In this document: positions 8,352 to 37,625 of the stretch, in pieces
Numbering within the stretch: the first letter of the stretch is position 1
Layout: each line of letters starts with the position of its first letter
Translations under genes and position numbers: made by a program
Assembly (NCBI RefSeq): GCF_004010195.1
Contig: NW_025213944.1
Coordinates: 1-37,625, forward strand
Length of the DNA: 37,625 nt
Reading direction: 5' to 3'
Origin: Chiloscyllium plagiosum
Lineage: Eukaryota
The notes under the pieces: model-generated
The model's database searches: none
What the model was told of the DNA's origin: nothing
The model's input: only the letters and a program-made list of their open reading frames with translations

Positions 8352-8559
8352 GTCAAGAGTGTGGTGCTGGAAAAGCACAGCATGTCAGGTAGCATCCGAG
8401 GAGCAGGAGAATTGACGTTTCGGGCATAAGCCCTTCATTAGGAAACTTATGCCCGAAATAGTGATTCTCCTGCTCCTCCAATGCTGCCTGACCCGCTGTG
8501 CTTTTCCAGCACGACACTCTCGACTCTGATCTCCAGCATCTGCAGTCCTCCCTTTCTCC
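8352..8559. mobile_element. Penelope-like pseudo-LTR fold-back (family B)
   Basis: Arms 8352-8430 and 8446-8524, 35-bp extension. Hammerhead remnant gggcttatgcccgaaacgtc with core mutated to CTAATGA. Confidence 0.8.
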
Positions 8560-13049: not shown

Positions 13050-13948
13050 GATGGATAGAGTCAAGATTAGGGTGGTGCTGGAAAAGCACAGCAGGTCAGG
13101 CAACATCCGAGGAGCAGGAAAATCGACGTTTCGGGCAAAAGCCCTTCATCCCCTAATCTTGACTCTTATCTCCAACATTTGCAGTCCTCACTTTTGCCAA
13201 GGTGATGGGCAGGTCAGGAGGGCTGTGTTGAGTTGGAGGCTTGGAACTGTGATAATGTGGGGGGGTGGCGAAGGGGAAATGAGGAAACTGTTGAAATCCA
13301 CATTCATCCCATGTGGTTGCAGGGTCCCAAGGTGGAATAGGAGAACACTTCATACCCCTTTTTGGCCATCTTATGTCAGTTAAAAAGCCTAGGGCAGCCA
13401 CTTTAAGTCAACCTTAGTCATGGGCAGCTGCCCTGCAACCACATGGGATGAATGTGGATTTCAAAAGTTTCCTCATTTCCCCTTCGCCACCCCCCCCCCC
13501 CCCCCTACATTATCACAGTTCCAAGCCTCCAACTCAACACAGCCCTCCTGACCTGCTCATCACCTTGGCAAAAGTGAGGACTGCAGATGTTGGAGATCAG
13601 AGTCAAGATTAGGGGATGAAGGGCTTTTGCCCGAAACGTCGATTTTCCTGCTCCTCGGATGTTGCCTGACCTGCTGTGCTTTTCCAGCACCACCCTAATC
13701 TTGACTCTATCCATCACCTTTCCCATCTATCCGCTCCACCCCCCTCCCCCGCTAACCTATCACCTTCTCCCTCACATTTATCTACCTATCGCTTTCTCAG
13801 CTACCTTCCAACCCCACCCCCTCCCATTTATCTCTCAGCCCGCCGGCCCACAAGTCTCATACCTGCTCCTCGGATGCTGCCTGACCTGTGCTTTTCCAGC
13901 ACCACACTCTCAACTCTGAACCCCAGCATCTGCAGTCCTCCCTTTCTC
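13050..13948. mobile_element. Composite Penelope-like element (family B) with long inverted arms and GIY-YIG C-terminus
   Basis: Arms 13050-13324 and 13431-13715. Encodes LFHLGTLQPHGMNVDFNSF. The 3' pseudo-LTR tail runs to about 13948. Confidence 0.85.
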
Positions 13949-19620: not shown

Positions 19621-19967
19621 TGTTGTGGTTCTGTTCGCCGAGCTGGAAATTTTTGTTGCAAACGTTTCGTCCCCTGTCTAGGTGACATCCTCAGTGCTTG
19701 AAAGCCTCCTGTGCTGCACTTCTGTGGTGTTTCCTCCGGCATTTATAGTGGCCTGTCCCTGCCGCTTCCGGTTGTCAACCGGAAGCGGCAGGGATAGGCC
19801 ACTATAAATGCCGGAGGAAACACCACAGAAGCGCTTCACAGGAGGCTTTCAAGGACTGAGGATGTCACCTAGACATGGGACGAAACGTTTGTAACAAAAA
19901 TTTCCAGCTCGGCGAACAGAACCACAACAACGAGCACCCGAGCTACAAATCTTCACCCAAACTTTGA
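19621..19967. mobile_element. Penelope-like element pseudo-LTR fold-back (family A) with a hammerhead motif in each arm
   Basis: 154-bp inverted arms (19621-19774 and 19776-19929) with a 1-nt spacer, 38-bp 3' extension, TSD agataaggtatct (19609-19621 and 19968-19980). Confidence 0.88.
19658..19697 (-). ncRNA. Minimal type I hammerhead ribozyme motif (core intact), sense to the SLC6A3 pre-mRNA
   Basis: gca CTGAGGA t GTCaCCT agac AGGgGAC GAAAC GTT tgc. Confidence 0.65.
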
Positions 19968-20525
19968 AGATAAGGTATCTATCAATTTTTTAAAAAAAGT
20001 AATTTTTTGAACACATTCTACAGTTGCTATGGGGTTTTGTTAATATACAGAGTGTCTAGTCATTGAATTGGTATGGAGAAGCCATAATTTGGCATGAAGG
20101 TTATAAAGAGTCATAGAGGGTGCCACAAGGGCAAAGCTTGGCACTGGTGGTATGTGAACTCATGGATGGACAGACTGTATCAAAATCATCACTTGCAGTG
20201 GGGAGCATGGGTAAAACATTTGGAACTTCACTTTCGAAATATTCCCTTATCCAGGTTATGGTGCATGATACTCCAAAGCCCCATCAACTCTTTGGAAAGT
20301 TGACCTGCCTCCATGGAAAATGTAAAGGATGAGAACATGCTTATCCTTTCTATGGAGCTGACAGGTCAGGAGTGTCGGGAGTAGGCTTAGGATTGAAACT
20401 ATCAGGCTGGCCAGTGAACATTACATTCACACCAGATCGAGACACTCAGGCCAAGTGGGCTGTTAGCATTAGGACCATACCCAGACTATCCCAGATGCAG
20501 GGAGCCTTTGACTGTGCTCATGTGA

Positions 20526-20743
20526 GACTAGATTAGAGTGGTGCTGGAAAAGCACAGCCGGTCAGGCAGCATCTGAGGAGCAAGAAAATCGACATTTCAG
20601 GCAAAAGCCCTTCATCAAGACTCAAGACTTTTGCCTGAAACGTTGATTTTCCTGCTCCTCGCATGCTGCCTGACTGGCTGTACTTTTCCAGCCCACTCTA
20701 ATCTAGACTCTGATTTCTAGCATCTATAGTCCTCACTTCTGCC
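20526..20743. mobile_element. Penelope-like pseudo-LTR fold-back (family B)
   Basis: Arms about 20528-20608 and 20628-20706, about 37-bp extension, perfect 14-bp TSD ctgtgctcatgtga (20512-20525 and 20744-20757). Confidence 0.85.
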
Positions 20744-26897: not shown

Positions 26898-27065
26898 CTC
26901 ACGCAAGGTCCCACGCAGGCTGATACATTTGTACACGGCAAAAATGGGTACAATTGCCATTGAAGATATGGCAATACACCATCCAATGACATTGGCCCAG
27001 TCTGGAAAGATGTAATTGCCATATTCTGGTGCTTTGAATGTTGAAATGCTGACGACCACAACAAA
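26898..27065 (-). CDS. SLC6A3: Sodium-dependent dopamine transporter, internal coding exon (equivalent to human exon 13; TM11 end to TM12)
   Basis: Translates [56 protein letters not shown], closely matching human [61 protein letters not shown] acceptor at 27066-27067, GTGAGT donor at 26892-26897, 168 nt, phase 0/0. Confidence 0.95.
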
Positions 27066-27280
27066 CTTTATTTAATAAGTTGGGAGGAAAGATGGAAACA
27101 GATAAAGCACTTGTTAAGTTCGTCCTACATCAGTTTTTACACTTAGATGATGTTGATGAATAACTGAAATAAAGATTTACATTAAAGCCACTGATGGTTC
27201 CAAAACAAAGAGATAAGACTTCCCTTTGTGAAAAATGCAATATTTCACATGCCAGTAATAGGCCACAATAGTATTGAAAT

Positions 27281-27640
27281 TGTTGTGGATCTGTTCGCCG
27301 AGCTGGGAATTTGTGTTGCAGACATTTTGTCCCCTGTCTAGGTGACATCCTTAGTGCTTGGGAGCCTCCTGTGAAGCGCTTCTGTGATGTTTCCTCCGGC
27401 ATTTATAGTGATTTGTATCTGCCGCTTCCGGTTGTCAGTTCCAGCTGTCCACAAGTGGCCGGTATATTGGGTCCAGGTCGATGTGCTTATTGATTGAATC
27501 TGGAGGCTTCACAGGAGGCTCCCAAGCACTGAGGGTGTCACCTAGACAGGGGACGAAACGTCTGCAACACAAATTCCCAGCTCGACGAATAGAACCACAA
27601 CAACGAGCACCCGAGCTACAAATCTTCTCACAAACTTTGA
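27281..27640. mobile_element. Penelope-like element inverted pseudo-LTR (family A) with GIY-YIG C-terminal remnant
   Basis: Same sequence family as 19621. Minus strand encodes DSINKHIDLDPIYRPL. TSD agtattgaaatt/agcactgaaatt (2 mismatches). Hammerhead cores are mutated. Confidence 0.85.
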
Positions 27641-29570
27641 GCACTGAAATTTCCCACCTCATATTTATTGTTTATCAATGATTATGCTACCTCAAACTGA
27701 AAATAATTGGTGCAATCTACCTTTTTGAACTCCTGACTAGTAATAGCAGGTGGCTGATGTTATAACTTGCACTTGCTGACATGCTCTCCCTGTAGTGTTT
27801 ACAACACAAGACACGAATTATTGCATTTTAGTTGCTGCAGCATGAGCAAAGTGCTGGGTAATGCAAGCAGAAAACATCTAGAATGTTGCTTACTTAGCAG
27901 CTGGTGCATCTGAGAAGTGCACCATTTGCTGTTCATCTGTTGAAAATGGGAACTATAAAGAGGAACCAAAGGCAGAGCATGTGTAATTCTTTGGCTTTAA
28001 CCTTCCTCCTAGACCGCTCAGCTTGACTGTTGTGTGCATCAGGCCTCGAGGTCTGTATACTATTATCATTATCCTCCCCACATGTATCTTGACCTGTTTC
28101 AGTTACAACGATTATACATTTAAAGCAGCTGCTCAAAGAAATTTGGGTAACTCTGTGCCACTGACAAGTTCCTTGTGCTGAATAAGCAATATGCTTCAAA
28201 CAACATATGAACTGGCTTTATATGAATGTCCAAGCAGCACATACTTGGAGTAGAGGCCCCAGTACTATGCTGACAGGCCCAGTTTTGGAAGGATACTAAA
28301 CTGCAACATCTCCATGCTCTGGTATCCGTAGGAGTATGTTTATGGAAATTGTCACTGTGTATCCATATATAAATTTAAATGGATAAACATTATTTAAGAA
28401 AAGTGTTTCCTCAATAATGAAAGCTCTGAGAAGTAACAGCACAACCACTATATAAATATTACACCTCTATTATTTCAATGAAATCATTAATGCAGATGTA
28501 GCAGCTTATTGCTTCATTCCTTTTGGTTGTTGACCTCATAATGTTTTATTCATAAAATTATATGGCAGGAAATTTAATGAGACCTGAAAACAGATGTGAG
28601 AATAGGGAATTGCACTATTGTGTGATCACACATCTGAGCATAGTGATTGTACTATCTTGCAAATAGTGAGAGCTCATATGAGTTAAAGCTGGCCTGCTCT
28701 ACTTAGTGAGCCTGCATGTTTGCATGCACAAAAAGTTGTCGCAAGTTGTCTAAAATGTGATGAGATAATAGAAAAGGAGAAAGTCAGTGGATGAGCAATG
28801 GCAAATATATAAGCAGATATCGCATAATGCTCAACAAATATTTATTCCAGTCAAAAAGGACTCAATGAGAAGGATGAACCAAACATGATTTTAAAAAGGT
28901 GATCGAGGAAAGTATTCAATCAGAAACCAAGGCATACAAAGATGCAAAAAACAGTGGTATGTCAGAGGATAGGAAATTATTTTAGGAATCAGCAGCAGAT
29001 GACTCAAAGACTAATAAGGAGGATGATAATTGATTATGGAAGTAACTTGGCAAGAAATATATAAAAAGAAACACCAAGAACTTTTCACATACATAAAGAG
29101 AATGAGAGACATAGAATCAGAGTCATAGAGATCTACAGCACAGAAAAAGGCCTGTTAACCCATCAAGATTATGCTGGTCAAAAACAATGACCTAACTATT
29201 CTAATCCCATTTTCTAACACTTGAACTTTTATGCCTTGGCATTGCAAGTGTGCATCTAAAGACTCCTTACACATTGAGGGTTTCTGCCTCTACCACTCTT
29301 ACAGATTGTGAGTAGCTAAAATAAGTGCGGGACTCCTGGAGAATGCAACTGGGGAATTGATAATGGGGAACAGGGAAATGGCAAATAATTTAAATCAATA
29401 CTTTGTGCATCAGTTTTCAAGGTGGAGAATATTATAAACATTCCAAAGATAACATAAGCAAAGTACTAACTGTAGGAAAGATCTCAAATCATGATGGATA
29501 AAGTATTTGACAACTTAATGGGATTAAAGGTGATCTAGTGCAGGACTTTGGTGGCCTGCGTCCAAGGGGT

Positions 29571-29855
29571 TTAGATTAGATTACTTACATTGTGGAAACA
29601 GGCCCTTCGGCCCAACAAGTCCACACCGCCCCGTCGAAGCGCAACCCACCCATACCCCTACATTTATACCTTACCTAACACTACGGGCAATTTAGCATGG
29701 CCAATTCACCTGACCTGCACATCTTTGGACTGTGGGAGGAAACCCACGCAGACACGGGGAGAACATGCAAACTCCACACAGTCAGTCGCCTGAGGCGGGA
29801 ATTGAACCCGGGTCTCTGGTGCTGTGAGGCAGCAGTGCTAACCACCGTGCCGCCC
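29571..29855 (-). mobile_element. HE1-like V-SINE, full length, relatively young
   Basis: Reverse complement begins gggcggcacggtggttagcactgctgcctcacagcaccagagacccgggttcaattccc (A and B boxes) and ends with an (aatct)n tail. Confidence 0.9.
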
Positions 29856-30001
29856 AAAGGAAGTGGCTGCAAAGTTAGTAGAGTTATTGATTAAAATATT
29901 CCAGAACTCATTGGATTCTGGGAGGGTTATGGTGGACTGGAAAACTGTGCCTATGATGCACTGTTCAAGAGGAATGGAGGCAGAAATTAAGAAACTATAG
30001 G

Positions 30002-30131
30002 AGAAAATGAGGACTGCAGACGCTGGAGATCAGAGTCGAAAGTGTGGCACTGGAAAAGTACGGCTGGCTAGGCAGCATCGGAGGAGCAAGAGAGTCGACA
30101 TTTTGGGCATCAGCCCTTCACTTTTCAACTC
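30002..30131 (-). mobile_element. Penelope-like pseudo-LTR fragment (family B) nested in an old CR1
   Basis: TSD aagaaactatagg/aagatactatagg (29989-30001 and 30132-30144). Confidence 0.8.
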
Positions 30132-30579
30132 AAGATACTATAGGCCAAATAGCCGAACATCTGACATTAGGAAGGTCCATTATTAAGGAAGAAATACTGG
30201 GGCATTTAGAAACACAATGCTATAAAAGAGTCATCATGGTTTTGTGAAAAGGAAATCCTGGATAACAACTTTGTTAGGGTTCTTTGAGGATACAACAAAC
30301 AGAGTTGCTAAACAGGTTAATGTAGCATGCTTGAATTTTCAGAACATATTTAATGAGCTGCCACATAAAGACTATTACACAAGATAGGAGCTCATGGTAT
30401 TGGGGCTAATGCATTCATATGTATCGAACATTGGCCAACATGTAGAAGACAGAATGAAACTGATGAGCCATATTCAGGTTGGAGTGCCACAAGGATCAGT
30501 CCTAGAGCCACGATTACTTATATATTTATCATATCTGTATTAATTATTGAGAGGAGAGGGCACAGTATAATGTCTAATC

Positions 30580-32900
30580 ACTAAACAAAAATGATCTTGA
30601 TTCCTAAATGCGAGGATAAAGACTGCCTGAAAAGCATAGACAACTGGCGGCCTATAACCATTGGTCTGATGCTGCTACGACTTTTCACGAAATTAGTGCC
30701 GATATGCCTCAGTGAAACCGTCAAAATTAGCAACAGGCAACAGGGGTTTCTAGCAGCCACTCCCAGGTGCAATGAAAACATTGTCATCCTCGAGAACATA
30801 ACTAAGGGAGCAAAGCATAACTGTAAGGACCTCCCAGTTGATCTGGCAAAAGTGTTCGACTCAGTTGGGCACAAACTACTATTGAAAACGTTGCAAAGAG
30901 CACATTTTCCAAAAGCCTGATCAAGGATCTCCACACTGGCAATATAACTGTGGTAGAAGGGAACAATACTTATACCACTCCAATAGACATTGGGAGGGGT
31001 ATGATGCAGGCCGACCCACTCTCTCTGATATTATTTAACATCTCTCTTGAGCCATTGATATGCTGTCTGGAGAAGGCAGACTCGGGGGTCGCCATGCTCC
31101 TGGGTGGAAGAAGAGTCAACTGCTCGACTTTGGCCTTTGCAGAATGACATAGCCCTTCTGAGTGACTCTCACACCGGCATGGCGAGGAATCTGAACTGCT
31201 TCAGTCATAGTGTGACCATACGGGCCTCAATATTAACATCGTGAAGACAAAGAGCTTCCACTTTATGTTTGAGAGGAAGCCCTTCCTGTACAATCACTTC
31301 GCTAACTGGAAGCTGCGTAACGCTTATATAGCCCCAGGTGATACTGAGAAATGCCTGGGTGCTCGTACGAACCCGTGGGCAGGTGTGACAGAAGGAGAAT
31401 GTGAGGAGAGGCTTAAGACGGGAGTGAAAGGAATACAGGCAGCATCCCTCCGACTGAGGCAACGCCTAGAAATCCTAAAAACCCATGTCATCTCCAGATT
31501 GTATTTTCATTTGATCCTGTCCGAAGCATCTTGAAGCAGACTGATAAAGCTGGACCAGATTGTATGCAATGCCATGAAAGAATTCCTCCACCTACCACCT
31601 CCTACCACTGATGGAGTCCTGTATGCTAACAACCAGAATGGCGGTGTAGGTGTGCCGAAACTGGAAGTGCAAATTCCATCCACGATTGTCCACAAACGAG
31701 AGGCACTAGATATGTCCAAGGACGTGATCATAAGGACCTCCTTCCAGTATAGAGGAGAATGCAACAGAGATACCATTGCAGGACTGTGAGAACACAAAAT
31801 CCTCAAAGAAATTGAAGATTTCCTACCTGGCAGCCAAAGTGGCAGCAAAGGGAAAATGGATCCAATGACTCACATCCAGGCAATTATGCCAGCACTACAG
31901 GATGCTGGGTGACAGAAACTGCCCAACAGGTGTGCAGGATGGAGAGAGTGGGAATAAAAAAGTGGTGAAGCCCTGAATGTCAAGGGGCAGGCATTCAGTA
32001 TTACAGAGATGACAAGATCTCAAACTCTTGGTTGAAACCAGCAATTCAACTGAAATCCTCATGGTTTATAAACAGCTATACTCAACAAGAGCCACCTATC
32101 ATGGGGAAGACCAAACAAAAACAAAACTTGCCGAAGGTGTGAGACGGCTATCAAAACCATTTCACACATCTCGGGTTGCTGCCCATTTGTTAAAAACACT
32201 CGAATAAAACACCATAATAAGATCGTAGACCAGTTGTGGAAGCATGTCAGTAAATACAGCTGGACATCATACATTGAGCCGAAGTTATTCATGAAAGATG
32301 GCTCACTATGGAAACCCAATCTCATATTTGAAAAAGATCAAAAGATCGTGGTAGTCAATGTCACAGCATGGTACGAAAACATCAAAGCGTTGGAAATGGC
32401 ATGGCGTGTAAAAACAGAGAAATATAACCACCTTAACACCGAGATAATGGAATTGGCGGGAGGCTCTCAACCCAAGGACTTTGGCTTCATGATGGGTGCT
32501 CAAGGCAAGTGGCTGCTTGAATAACAGCCTGAAATTCCTCAGCATTGAACCATTCCGAACATTCGCTCAAAGGACATCTAGGCTCACCTTTTCACTGACA
32601 CTCAAATTATTACACCTCTTCAGTGATAAGTGAGCAAAATACCGCAGACCGGCTCTGGTCGGAGACAAGGACCGGCCAACCCTCACCGAACAGATTAACT
32701 AAAAATAATAAAATGAAAAACGGGGGCGCCGGTCCATCAAAACCACCATCAGTTCTGACACCAGACTGTTATATTACCCCTTAGTTTGAGCCTCATATAA
32801 ACACCAATATTACCTGGACCTGGCCCGTGGTAATGCTAGAAAGTCTAAATGTCAACAGGTGACGTAAAGACTCGGAAAAGGCACTCGTGAGTGTGGATAA
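30580..32900 (+). mobile_element. R2-clade (restriction-like endonuclease) non-LTR retrotransposon, 5'-truncated and pseudogenised
   Basis: Frameshifted ORF pieces: LIPK..DNWRPITIG..LRLF, RQQGF...CNEN, VDLAKVFDSV, GMMQADPLSLILFN, LAFA(D)DIALLS (1-nt insertion near 31143), KEFLHLP..TDGVLY....GGVGVPKL, QGAGIQYYRDDKISNSWL, CCHC knuckle CRRC..TISHISGCC from 32129, HNKIV, KPNLIF..VVNVT, EKY, GFMMGAQGKW. Stop at 32631-32633, then a 3'UTR of about 270 nt. Confidence 0.85.
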
Positions 32901-34187
32901 CATGTTGGAAAAGGTTATAAGAGAGAGGATTTATAATCGTCTAGAAAGGAATAAATTGATTAGGGATAGTCAACTTGGTTTTGTGAAGGGTAGGTCGTGC
33001 CTCACAAACTTTATTGAGTTCTTTGAAAAGGTGACCAAATAGGCGGATGAGGGTAAAGCAGGTGGATGTGGTATATATGGATTTCAGTAAGGTGTTTGAT
33101 AAGGTTCCCCATGGTAGGCTATTGCATAAAATACAGAGGCATGAGATTGAGGGTGATTCAGCAGATTGGATCTGAAGTTGGCTAGGTAAAGGAAGACAGA
33201 GGATGGTCGTTGAATGGAAATGTTCATCCTGGAGTTCAGTTACTAGTGGTGTACCACAAGGATCGGTTTTGGGTCTAATGCTGTTTGTCATTTTTATAAA
33301 CGACCCGGATGAGGGCGTAGAAGGATGGGTTAGTAAATTTGCAGATGACATTAAGGTCGGTAGAGTTGTAGATTATGGAGGGGCATAGGTAAACTGCAGA
33401 GTTGGGCTGAGAGGTGGCAAATGGAATTTAATGTGGAAAGTGTGAGGTGATTCACTTTGGAAGGAGCAATAGGAATGCAGAGTACTGGACTAAAGGTAAG
33501 ATTCTTGGTAGTGTAGATGAGCAGAGAGATTTTGGTGTCCATGTACATTGATCCCTGAAAGTTGCCACCCAGGTTGATAGGGTTGTTAAGAAGGCATACG
33601 GTGTGTTAACTTTTATTAGTAGAGGGATTGAGCTTTGGAATCATGCGGTCATGTTGCAGCTGTACAAAACTTTGGTGTGGCTGCACTTGGCGTACAGCGT
33701 ACAGTTCTGGTCACCGCATTATAGGAAGGATGTGGAAGTTTTGGAAAGGGTTCAGAGGAGATTTACTAGAATGTTGCCTGGTATGGAGGAAAGGTCTTAT
33801 GAGGAAAGGCTGAGGGACTTGATACTGTTTTCATTGGAGAGAAGGAGGTTGAGAGGTGACTTAATGGAGACATAGAAGATAATCAGATAGAGTGAACAGT
33901 GAAAGTCTTTTTCCTTAGATGGTGATGGCTAGCACAAGGGAGCATAGCTTTAAATGGAGGGGTGATTGATAGACGACAGATGTCAGAGGTAGTTTCTTTA
34001 CTCAGAGTAGTAGGGGCGTGGAACACTGCCTGCAACAGTAGTAAACTCATCAATTTTAAGGACATTTAAATGGTCATTGGATGGATTTATGGATGAAAAT
34101 GGAATAGTGTAGGATAGATAGGCTTCAAATTGGTTTCACGGATTGGTGCAACATCAAGGGCCAAAGGGCCTGTACTGCGCTGTAATG
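32901..34187 (+). mobile_element. CR1-type LINE, 5'-truncated (RT domain to 3' tail), with stops and frameshifts
   Basis: [64 protein letters not shown], ending in the tail gggccaaagggcctgtactgcgctgtaatg. Confidence 0.9.
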
Positions 34188-35189: not shown

Positions 35190-37625
35190 GATAGAGCGGC
35201 GAGGAGAGAAGATGGAGTGAAGCGAGGGCTGCTGGGAAGGGTAAGTTTTCCCATTTTTTCCTGTCTGGGAGCAGAGGGAGACACAGCGAAGGTGGAGACA
35301 AGGAGCGTCCCGGGAAGGTAAGGACTTAATATATATTTGGGCAGCGGCTAAACCAGAGATACTACACGTGAAGTATCTCTCTCCCGCCCCCCTCCTCTAA
35401 CCGGAAGAAAAAGACTCTAAGGTAAGGCTTCTATTTTTTTCTTCATCTTTATTTTTCATATATTTAAGTGCATAGTTTAGTTTTAGTTAGTTGATATAAA
35501 GCTAAAGCTGACAATGACAGGGGACCTCAGACCCCTGGCATGTACCTCTTGCTTGATGTGGGAGCTCAGGAATGTGGCTGACGTTCCTGACTCTTACACT
35601 TGCAAGACGTGTGTTCAGCTGCAGCTCTTGTTTGACTGTATGACAGCTCTGGAGCTGCGGATGGATTCACTGTGGAGCATCCGCAATGCTGAGGAGGTAG
35701 TGGATAGCACGTTTAGTGAACTGGTCACACCGCAGGTTAGAATTGCTGAGGGAGACAGTGAATAGGTGACCAAAAGGCAGAAAAGAAGTAGGAAAGCAGT
35801 GCAGGTGTCCCCTGCAACCATCTCCCTCAAACAGGTATACCGTTTTGGATACTGTTGGGGGCGATGGCTCACCAGGGGAGGGCAGCAGTTGCCAAGATCA
35901 TGGCACCGTGGCAGGCACTGCTGCTCAGAAGGGCGGGAAAAAGACCATAGTCATAGTCATAGGGGATCCTGTAGTAAGGGGAGTGGATAGGCGGTTCTGT
36001 GGCCAAAAACAGAACTCCCGGATGGTATGTAGCCGCCCAGGTGCTCCAGTCAGCGATGTCACTGATCAGCTGCAGAGCATTCTAAAGGGGGAGGGTGAAC
36101 GGCCAGTTGTCGTGGTGCATATAGGCACCAACAATAAGTAAAAAAACGAGATGAGGTCCTGAAAGAAAAATTCAGGGACCTAGGAGAGAAGATAAAGAGG
36201 AAGACCTCAAAGGTAGTGATCTCGGGATTACTACCAGTGCCACGTGCTAGCTAGTGTAGAAATGAAAAAATAGGCAGGATGAACATGTGGCTTGAGAGAT
36301 AGTATAGGAGGAAGGGATTCAGATTTGCTGGATATTGGGACCGGTTCTGGGGAAGGTGGGACTATTACAAAATGGATGGTCTACATCTGAACCAGACTGG
36401 AACCAATGTCCTTGGGGGAGTTTTTTGCTACTGCTGTTGGGGAGGTTTTAAACTAATGTGGCAGGGGTTGGGAACCAGAAGAGAAAACAAGTAGACAGCG
36501 AGGTGGAAACTGGAGACTGAAAAAGAATCATGAAGATAGTATTAATAAGGGGAAGAGTAGGCAGAGAGCAGATGAACGCAAAAGAACTGGTGGCCTGAAA
36601 TGCATCTACTTTAACGCAATGAATATAGCGTGCAAGGCAGATGAACTTAAGACTTGAATTGGTGTCTGGGAGTTATTGCAATCACAGAGACTTGGTTGAA
36701 GGAAGGGCATGATTGGCAACTAAATGTTCCAGGATATAGACACTTCAGACAGGACAGGGAGGGAAGTAAAAGGGGGGTTGGGGTGGAGTTGCATTGCTGG
36801 TCAGGGATTATATCATGCTGTGCTAAAGGAGGACACTATGGAGGGCTTAGGTAGTGAGGCATTATGGGTGGAGCTGAGAAATAAGAAGGGTACAGTTACA
36901 TTGATGGGGCTGTATTACAGGCCTCCCAACAGTGAGTGAGAGGTAGAAAAACAAATAGGTAAACAGATTATGGAAAGATATGGAGGCAAGAGGGTAGTGG
37001 TGATGGGAGATTTTAATTTTCCCAACATTGACTGAAATACACTTAGTGTCAGAGGTCTGGATGGGATGGAATTTGTAAGAAGCATCCAGGAGAGTTTTCT
37101 CGAGCAGTGTGCCAATAGTCCGACGAGGGAAGGGGCCATATTGGACCTGGTATTGGGGAATGAGCCAGGACAGGTGGTAGAAGTTGTGGTGGGGGATTTC
37201 TTTGGGCACAGTGACCACAATTCTGTAAGTTTTAGAATACTCATAGACAAAGATGAGAGTGGTTCTAAGGGAAGAATACTAAACTGGACCAAGGCCAATT
37301 ATATTAGGCAGGAGCTGGGAAATGTGGTTTGAGAGCAGCTATTTGAAGGGAAGTCCATATTTGATATGTGGGAGGCTTTCAAAGACAGTGCAGGATAGGC
37401 ATGTCCCATTTAAGGCAAAGGATAGGAAAGGCAAGATTCGTGATCCGTGGATGACAGGAGAAATCATGCGACTAGCCACGAGGTAAAGAGAAGCGTACAT
37501 AAGGTTGAGGCAGCTAAGAACAGAATGTGCCCTGGAAGAATATCGGAAGAGTAGGACAGTCTTAAACGAGGAATAAAGCGGTCATGAAATAGGGGTCATG
37601 AAATAGCTTTAGTGAGCAGAATTAA
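35190..37625 (+). mobile_element. CR1 LINE 5' portion: 5'UTR, ORF1 (CxxC..CxxC/leucine zipper plus SGNH esterase) and start of ORF2 (APE endonuclease); decayed; runs off the window
   Basis: ORF1 from 35514: CTSCLMWE..YTCKTCVQLQLL, then VIGDPVVRG, CSRPGA, VVVHIGTN, DGLHLN. ORF2: IAITETWL, GLYYRPPNS, MGDFNFP, PTREGAILDLVLGNE, HSDHNSV. In-frame stops present. Confidence 0.9.

Follow-up and report, generated by a model that had tools for sequence, protein, structure and literature searches.

A decayed R2 retrotransposon between CR1 fragments in a bamboo shark genome most likely belongs to an already described ribosomal-gene R2 family

R2 is a retrotransposon that normally inserts solely in ribosomal RNA genes. 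In the window, by which we mean the whole analysed stretch of Chiloscyllium plagiosum DNA (37,625 nt), the forward strand at 30579-32900 carries the 3′ portion of a lineage A R2 element with RT, CCHC and RLE regions. CR1 LINE fragments border the copy on both sides, and 28S sequence is absent (Table 1). The limits 30580-32900 reported in an earlier note are correct to a few bases. The copy lies antisense to SLC6A3, 3.5 kb upstream of the exon at 26898-27065, which matches the dopamine transporter at E 3e-20 and the noradrenaline transporter at 7e-15. The note had also placed the element in an SLC6A3 intron: the copy does lie upstream of three SLC6A3 exons on the opposite strand, and the intron itself is only deduced from the direction of the gene, as a search for the next upstream exon within the window found none that would bracket the copy.

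Table 1. Features of the R2 copy, its junctions and the neighbouring host gene in the window
Feature	Position	Strand	Basis or remark
SLC6A3 (dopamine transporter) coding exon	26898-27065	-	best match human dopamine transporter residues 534-589
Two additional SLC6A3 exons	about 25370-25300 and 19120-19097	-	three terminal exons in total
Older CR1-type RT piece, different subfamily	30150-30578	+	truncated at the left junction, ahead of its FADD motif
Decayed R2 ORF, 5′ part gone	30579-32630	+	frameshift-aware translation and PDB matches; start set visually with the R2-1_SAc nucleotide sequence
RT from just ahead of motif 1, then thumb	from 30579	+	translation
WREWE in linker	31940-31954	+	translation
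CCHC knuckle	32129-32182	+	translation
RLE, PD reading as PN	32318-32320	+	translation
R2 3′ UTR, complete to about 7 nt	32631-32900	+	by-eye comparison with zebra shark R2-1_STig
6-bp stem with 5-nt loop	32849-32865	+	fold; pseudoknot stem 1 by analogy
GGAAAAG hinge	32874-32880	+	motif of the A-clade template-recognition module
Terminal stem	32881-32885 with 32890-32894	+	fold
Right junction zone	32892-32902	+	bases fit R2 terminus and CR1 alike; 8/11 against CR1 read consensus
CR1-type LINE, RT to 3′ end, without 5′ part	32903-34185	+	about 20,000-25,000 copies by read depth

Self-complementary blocks at 13050-13715, 19621-19929, 8352-8524, 20524-20710 and 27280-27603, with arms 81-95% alike (95% at 19621-19929), look MITE-like or like inverted SINE pairs. 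Two SINE-like inserts (29570-29860 and 29993-30120) sit within the old CR1 to the left of R2, and several more copies are scattered across the window. The 5′ part of another CR1-type element occupies about 35200-37625 of the forward strand and continues past the window edge; by eye it comprises an ORF1-like esterase region followed by an endonuclease region.

Aligned to an intact relative with frameshifts allowed and each break written as X, the ORF can be read through for 684 residues over 30585-32630, interrupted by seven frameshifts and five stops. The order of domains—RT, CCHC knuckle and C-terminal RLE—fits the single ORF of R2 lineage A. The zinc-finger/Myb N-terminal region, a lineage A feature present in the catshark scaffold model P0012 (three zinc fingers and Myb) and in R2-1_STig, is missing from the window copy. 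The four motifs on which the element had earlier been assigned to the R2 clade are all recovered on the forward strand (NWRPITIG, HLPPPTTDGVLYANNQNGGVGVPKL, DKISNSWL in a frameshifted segment, and GFMMGAQGKW), and the assignment stands. The first ORF piece matches RVT_1 (E 9e-6), while PDB matches below E 1e-3 are exclusively R2 proteins, led by those of the vertebrate A clade (9nl2 at 5e-28, 9nl3, 9dou); all five PDB matches of the thumb piece are R2. The CCHC/RLE piece finds silkworm R2Bm at E 5e-8, far behind the turtle and zebra finch A-clade proteins. A C/D lineage origin was rejected, since the clade C element R2-2_STig fails to match. A frameshift at 31145 disrupts the RT catalytic motif and both RLE aspartates have become N (KPNL, VNVT); read from the sequence, the catalytic motifs of this copy are dead.

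By eye, positions 32790-32900 agree with the end of R2-1_STig, up to its TAGCC, at 85 of 108 aligned nucleotides (loop and gaps excluded), including a perfect run of 22 nt. Compared in the same way, the stem at 32849-32865 keeps its pairing despite two changes affecting both sides and one affecting a single side, and the loop-to-hinge pseudoknot pairing carries one mismatch. The hinge and the terminal stem are features described in A-clade R2 templates (PMC11601368). The fold of the 3′ region as a whole is no better than that of shuffled sequences (z 0.44). No TAGCC tail follows the R2 end at the right junction, and reads follow the CR1 family sequence from 32903 on. At the left junction R2 begins just ahead of RT motif 1 and abuts the truncated older CR1. 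No target-site duplication is found, the longest shared word being 7 nt and located away from the junctions; because both R2 and the older CR1 are truncated at the left junction as well, DNA appears to have been lost there, at insertion or afterwards. The left and right CR1 pieces are 42-44% identical in amino acids and cover overlapping regions, which rules them out as halves of one split element.

An Rfam search of all 37,625 bases returns no matches, hence no 28S. The downstream and upstream 28S target motifs, allowing up to three mismatches, occur 4 and 1 times in the window against 3.9 and 1.5 expected, and never at the junctions. With CR1 on both sides, the copy lies outside 28S, as had been claimed for it. 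A GG/TA resemblance of the CR1 site to the 28S cut site was discarded as too short and picked post hoc.

Contigs from another individual and from two related species, here organisms B and C, contain this R2 copy too, so the insertion is old and real. The comparison covered four of 24 listed runs, among them one (X12) of the seven with small word shares (X8-X14). The contig from the second sample of the host covers 32048-32932 with 5 differences and reaches 30 bases beyond the right junction, one base short of the bridging threshold of 31. In organism C, one contig (30380-30787, 25 differences) crosses the left junction and another (32022-32924, 39 differences) extends 22 bases beyond the right one. 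Organism B contributes a piece at 31546-32003 with 11 differences and a further contig over 30574 that reaches 81 bases to its end. Orthologous distance to the window copy amounts to 2.4% in organism B and 4.3-6.1% in organism C. Read depth in organism B is zero at 32720-32809, a segment that its R2 copy may lack. On the basis of these contigs, the possibility of an assembly artefact, raised in the earlier note, was rejected. Dating in years was abandoned because the shark pedigree rate, 7e-10 per generation, has a tenfold-wide interval (PMC10587355).

Relics of this kind are present in more than one copy. In a raw-read sample of about 4 in 100 of run X19, nine reads are at least 99% alike to the window copy, about 0.5-fold, which gives a rough single-copy level; the median depth over 22 ORF bins is 6.5, corresponding, for sequences at least 80% identical, to about 13 copies, against about 24,000 for the CR1 flank. 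Three contig sets agree, with depths over the R2 ORF of 12-13, 11-21 and 10-12 times single copy. The genome is thus estimated to hold about 10-15 R2 relics at 80% identity or more to the parts present in the window copy, more distant relics falling outside this count and flanks having been read for the window copy only. The paralog pieces listed, 12 among more than 23,000 in all (CR1 included), are 11-18% apart and have single-copy-like depth, and seven of them hold 9-36 gaps. R2 copy number lies about three orders of magnitude under that of the neighbouring CR1. The earlier description of the element as a rare off-target fossil is upheld as regards the off-target fossil, our best reading, but not as regards rarity.

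Searching with the thumb piece produced seven proteins of 886 candidates, six of which are shark gene models; a representative search extended the set, with 10 of 150 listed entries examined, so that the model counts are lower bounds. We found at least 11 models in Chiloscyllium punctatum, on scaffolds of 11 different lengths from 58 kb to 4.4 Mb (64-72% amino acid identity to the window copy), and at least four in Scyliorhinus torazame, on scaffolds of 40-487 kb (51-63%). Three further C. punctatum models (P0013, P0027 and P0134) sit on contigs shorter than 5 kb. The N-terminus of P0013 is identical by eye to that of the published 28S-flanked R2-1_CPu, and its identity to the window copy is 46%; P0027, on a 4.5-kb contig, represents a third, intermediate type. 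In model P0131 (chiPu_0010969) an R2 RLE piece is combined with exons from a host gene for an MPN-domain protein, which we take to be ABRAXAS-like; the fusion probably stems from faulty annotation across a further intronic relic. Other searches were empty: the 150-aa RLE piece gave no matches among 122 candidates in a word-index search, the 22-nt 3′-end motif gave none in metagenome contigs, and none of 47 pattern matches to the P0010 query in metagenome contigs was confirmed.

In a tree of 23 rows (LG+G4, supports from the raw Newick), the window copy groups with seven C. punctatum scaffold models at support 100, the inner branches being short and the tips long. All shark R2s, including the 28S-flanked R2-1_CPu (P0013), likewise form a clade with support 100, whose neighbours are turtle and coelacanth proteins. 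Between two long-ORF catshark copies the distance is about 0.06 substitutions per site. The window copy thus falls within the shark R2s, which include a 28S-flanked element, in line with its earlier placement in R2 and not in another RLE clade, in a tree whose rows contain no NeSL, R4, HERO or CRE sequences. Membership of NeSL, R4, HERO, CRE or Utopia is very unlikely, given that amino acid identity to shark R2s is 60-72% and the 3′ UTR is shared. The C. punctatum scaffold relics are closer to the zebra shark rDNA element than to the species' own published long-branch R2-1_CPu, a pattern that possibly records turnover of R2 families in rDNA.

Published shark elements offer the closest comparison. 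Table S2 of Hassan et al. 2026 (PMC13188248) holds 13 chondrichthyan R2 rows, several of them full length, which supersedes the suggestion in the earlier note that the window copy might be of use in rebuilding a chondrichthyan R2 protein. In that table, 12 of the 13 rows have TAGCC downstream, and the 28S columns of the white shark row are empty. R2-1_STig, labelled clade A in Table S7 of the same source, has 28S on both sides. Compared by eye over at most 400 characters per entry, R2-1_SCa matches the window copy at 83 of 122 amino acids and R2-1_SAc at 74 of 85 nucleotides, both with TAGCC downstream, and R2-1_STig matches the scaffold copy P0006 from the window's clade at 56 of 60 amino acids. 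These three elements, compared by eye only and not among the rows of the tree, share their family and 3′ module with the window copy, and 28S-resident members of this family thus occur in zebra shark, dogfish and small-spotted catshark. They have 28S flanks and long ORFs, whereas the window copy has CR1 flanks and no 5′ half, its frame is broken 12 times and its catalytic motifs are dead. In the same Table S2, the white shark row (R2-1_CCar) has no 28S flank and an AT-rich start that does not look like R2, and upstream of the catshark element R2-1_SCa there is only about 130 nt of 28S, preceded by sequence that does not look like rDNA; judged from these ends, each of the two may lie outside the rDNA array. 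The best solved matches, turtle R2Pm (9nl2/9nl4) and zebra finch R2Tg (9nl3/9dou), show the same domain order, EWE anchor, GGAAAAG hinge and terminal stem; they are about 34-35% identical to the window copy in amino acids, and are active and 28S-specific.

We consider it probable, at roughly 0.65, that the window copy and the other relics are off-target leftovers of an rDNA-resident shark family of lineage A R2, retained in slow shark genomes. RNA of a master element in rDNA would have been copied into DNA by the R2 protein away from its proper target, probably within an existing CR1. Target-primed reverse transcription requires a start at the element's own 3′ end, and the complete 3′ module observed here suggests that the insertion was primed there. 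The upstream portion of R2, and whatever DNA had separated the CR1 pieces, would have been lost at insertion or by later deletion. R2 depends on rDNA transcription (PMC13188248, Background); without this and without its 5′ half the copy would have been unable to spread, and after landing would have decayed neutrally in place. Strays could have reached a dozen or more as copies in rDNA were purged and dispersed ones persisted in a slowly mutating genome. A zebra finch A-clade protein in human cells is reported to leave about 1% of its 3′ junctions off target, at sites with little target likeness (PMC11371274), copies in rDNA are purged whereas dispersed ones remain (PMC13580325, section 7), and mutation in sharks is slow (PMC10587355); taken together, a dozen relics need no change in specificity. 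That the relics belong to one family with the 28S-flanked shark R2s follows from the tree and the by-eye comparison. Several points count against the off-target reading. Members inserted in 28S are known from other sharks, the host not among them, and the published rDNA resident of C. punctatum is a distant family (46% amino acid identity to the window copy against 66-72% for the scaffold copies). The relics span two shark orders. Past the R2 end a TAGC-like primer match, of the kind seen at off-target insertions in cells (PMC11371274), is not clearly present, and the target-site duplication is absent.

A shark R2 subfamily might instead have relaxed or lost its 28S specificity and spread for a time from dispersed masters, like the flatworm families R2NS-1_SMed and R2NS-1_CSi, which we regard as unlikely. 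The C. punctatum and S. torazame models (at least 11 and at least four, on scaffolds whose lengths range from 40 kb to 4.4 Mb, one fused to the MPN-domain gene) would suit such a spread, yet the copies are about three orders of magnitude fewer than the adjoining CR1. The scaffold models group apart from the 28S-flanked R2-1_CPu and the 28S columns of the white shark row in Table S2 (PMC13188248) are empty, but TAGCC lies downstream in the nearest published relatives (R2-1_STig, R2-1_SCa and R2-1_SAc), and P0012 retains zinc fingers and Myb. The closeness of the two long-ORF catshark copies, at about 0.06 substitutions per site, speaks for spread from such masters; the listed relics, 11-18% apart, speak against it when set beside R2NS copies, which are more than 98% identical to their consensus (PMC5035012). 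The dispersed lineage without specificity entertained in the earlier note is therefore disfavoured, its closest published relatives being 28S-flanked and the relics few and old. We think it quite improbable that the element entered an rDNA unit or an orphan 28S piece on target, came to or remained at the present locus with rDNA around it, and later lost its flanks, to a CR1 insertion on the 3′ side and a deletion on the 5′ side. The right-hand CR1 does resemble a 5′-truncated insertion, with a brief stretch of common sequence at the 5′ joint and no upstream half on the left, and R2-1_SCa, with only about 130 nt of 28S after sequence that by eye does not look like rDNA (PMC13188248), offers a possible parallel. 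However, no trace of 28S exists anywhere in the window, even past the 3′ end of the CR1, and a second event would have to strike no more than about 10 nt from where R2 ends, a coincidence that landing in an abundant CR1 would not require.

Extra-rDNA copies consistent with the off-target reading have been described elsewhere. Those in five Drosophila species are dead ends (Stage and Eickbush 2009, PMC2718515), and many avian R2 remnants carry non-rRNA flanks (Kojima et al. 2016, PMC5035012). As reported there, Drosophila and avian copies resemble the shark relics in being incomplete, diverged, outside rDNA and not founders of the rDNA population. The Drosophila copies are 1-2% diverged, whereas the shark relics, at 11-18%, are shared between species and occur in two shark orders. 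Flatworm R2NS-1_SMed and R2NS-1_CSi, the sole non-specific R2 families named in the part of Kojima et al. (PMC5035012) drawn on here, have, like the window copy, an R2-clade protein at a non-28S site. They belong to clades D and C and consist of copies near their consensus, whereas the family of the window is of lineage A, with 28S-flanked members and old relics. Young near-consensus copies and the lack of a 28S-inserted member, which mark the R2NS families, are both contradicted in sharks by the divergence of the relics and by the 28S-flanked relatives.

The window copy most likely belongs to an already described ribosomal-gene R2 family, and not to a new free-roaming lineage. Taken alone it is an ordinary fossil; the interest is in the relics as a set. 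We found no description of dispersed R2 relics in sharks in the open literature, a coverage without most subscription papers and Repbase. A 2026 review notes that genome positions may mislead on R2 specificity, as rates of loss differ between rDNA and the rest of the genome (PMC13580325, section 7), and sharks seem a clear case of such unequal loss. It is a doubtful though consequential scenario that a lineage A R2 of carpet sharks and catsharks, which in the zebra shark still occupies 28S, became less strict in its targeting and spread to ordinary chromosomes, in bamboo sharks while another R2 family occupied rDNA. If true, naturally relaxed specificity would be a first for a jawed-vertebrate R2 among those we found described, and the relics would form a natural atlas of off-target sites for a protein class now used in gene insertion. 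The junctions of the shark relics could reveal where A-clade R2 lands upon missing its target, and how R2 families turn over in rDNA.
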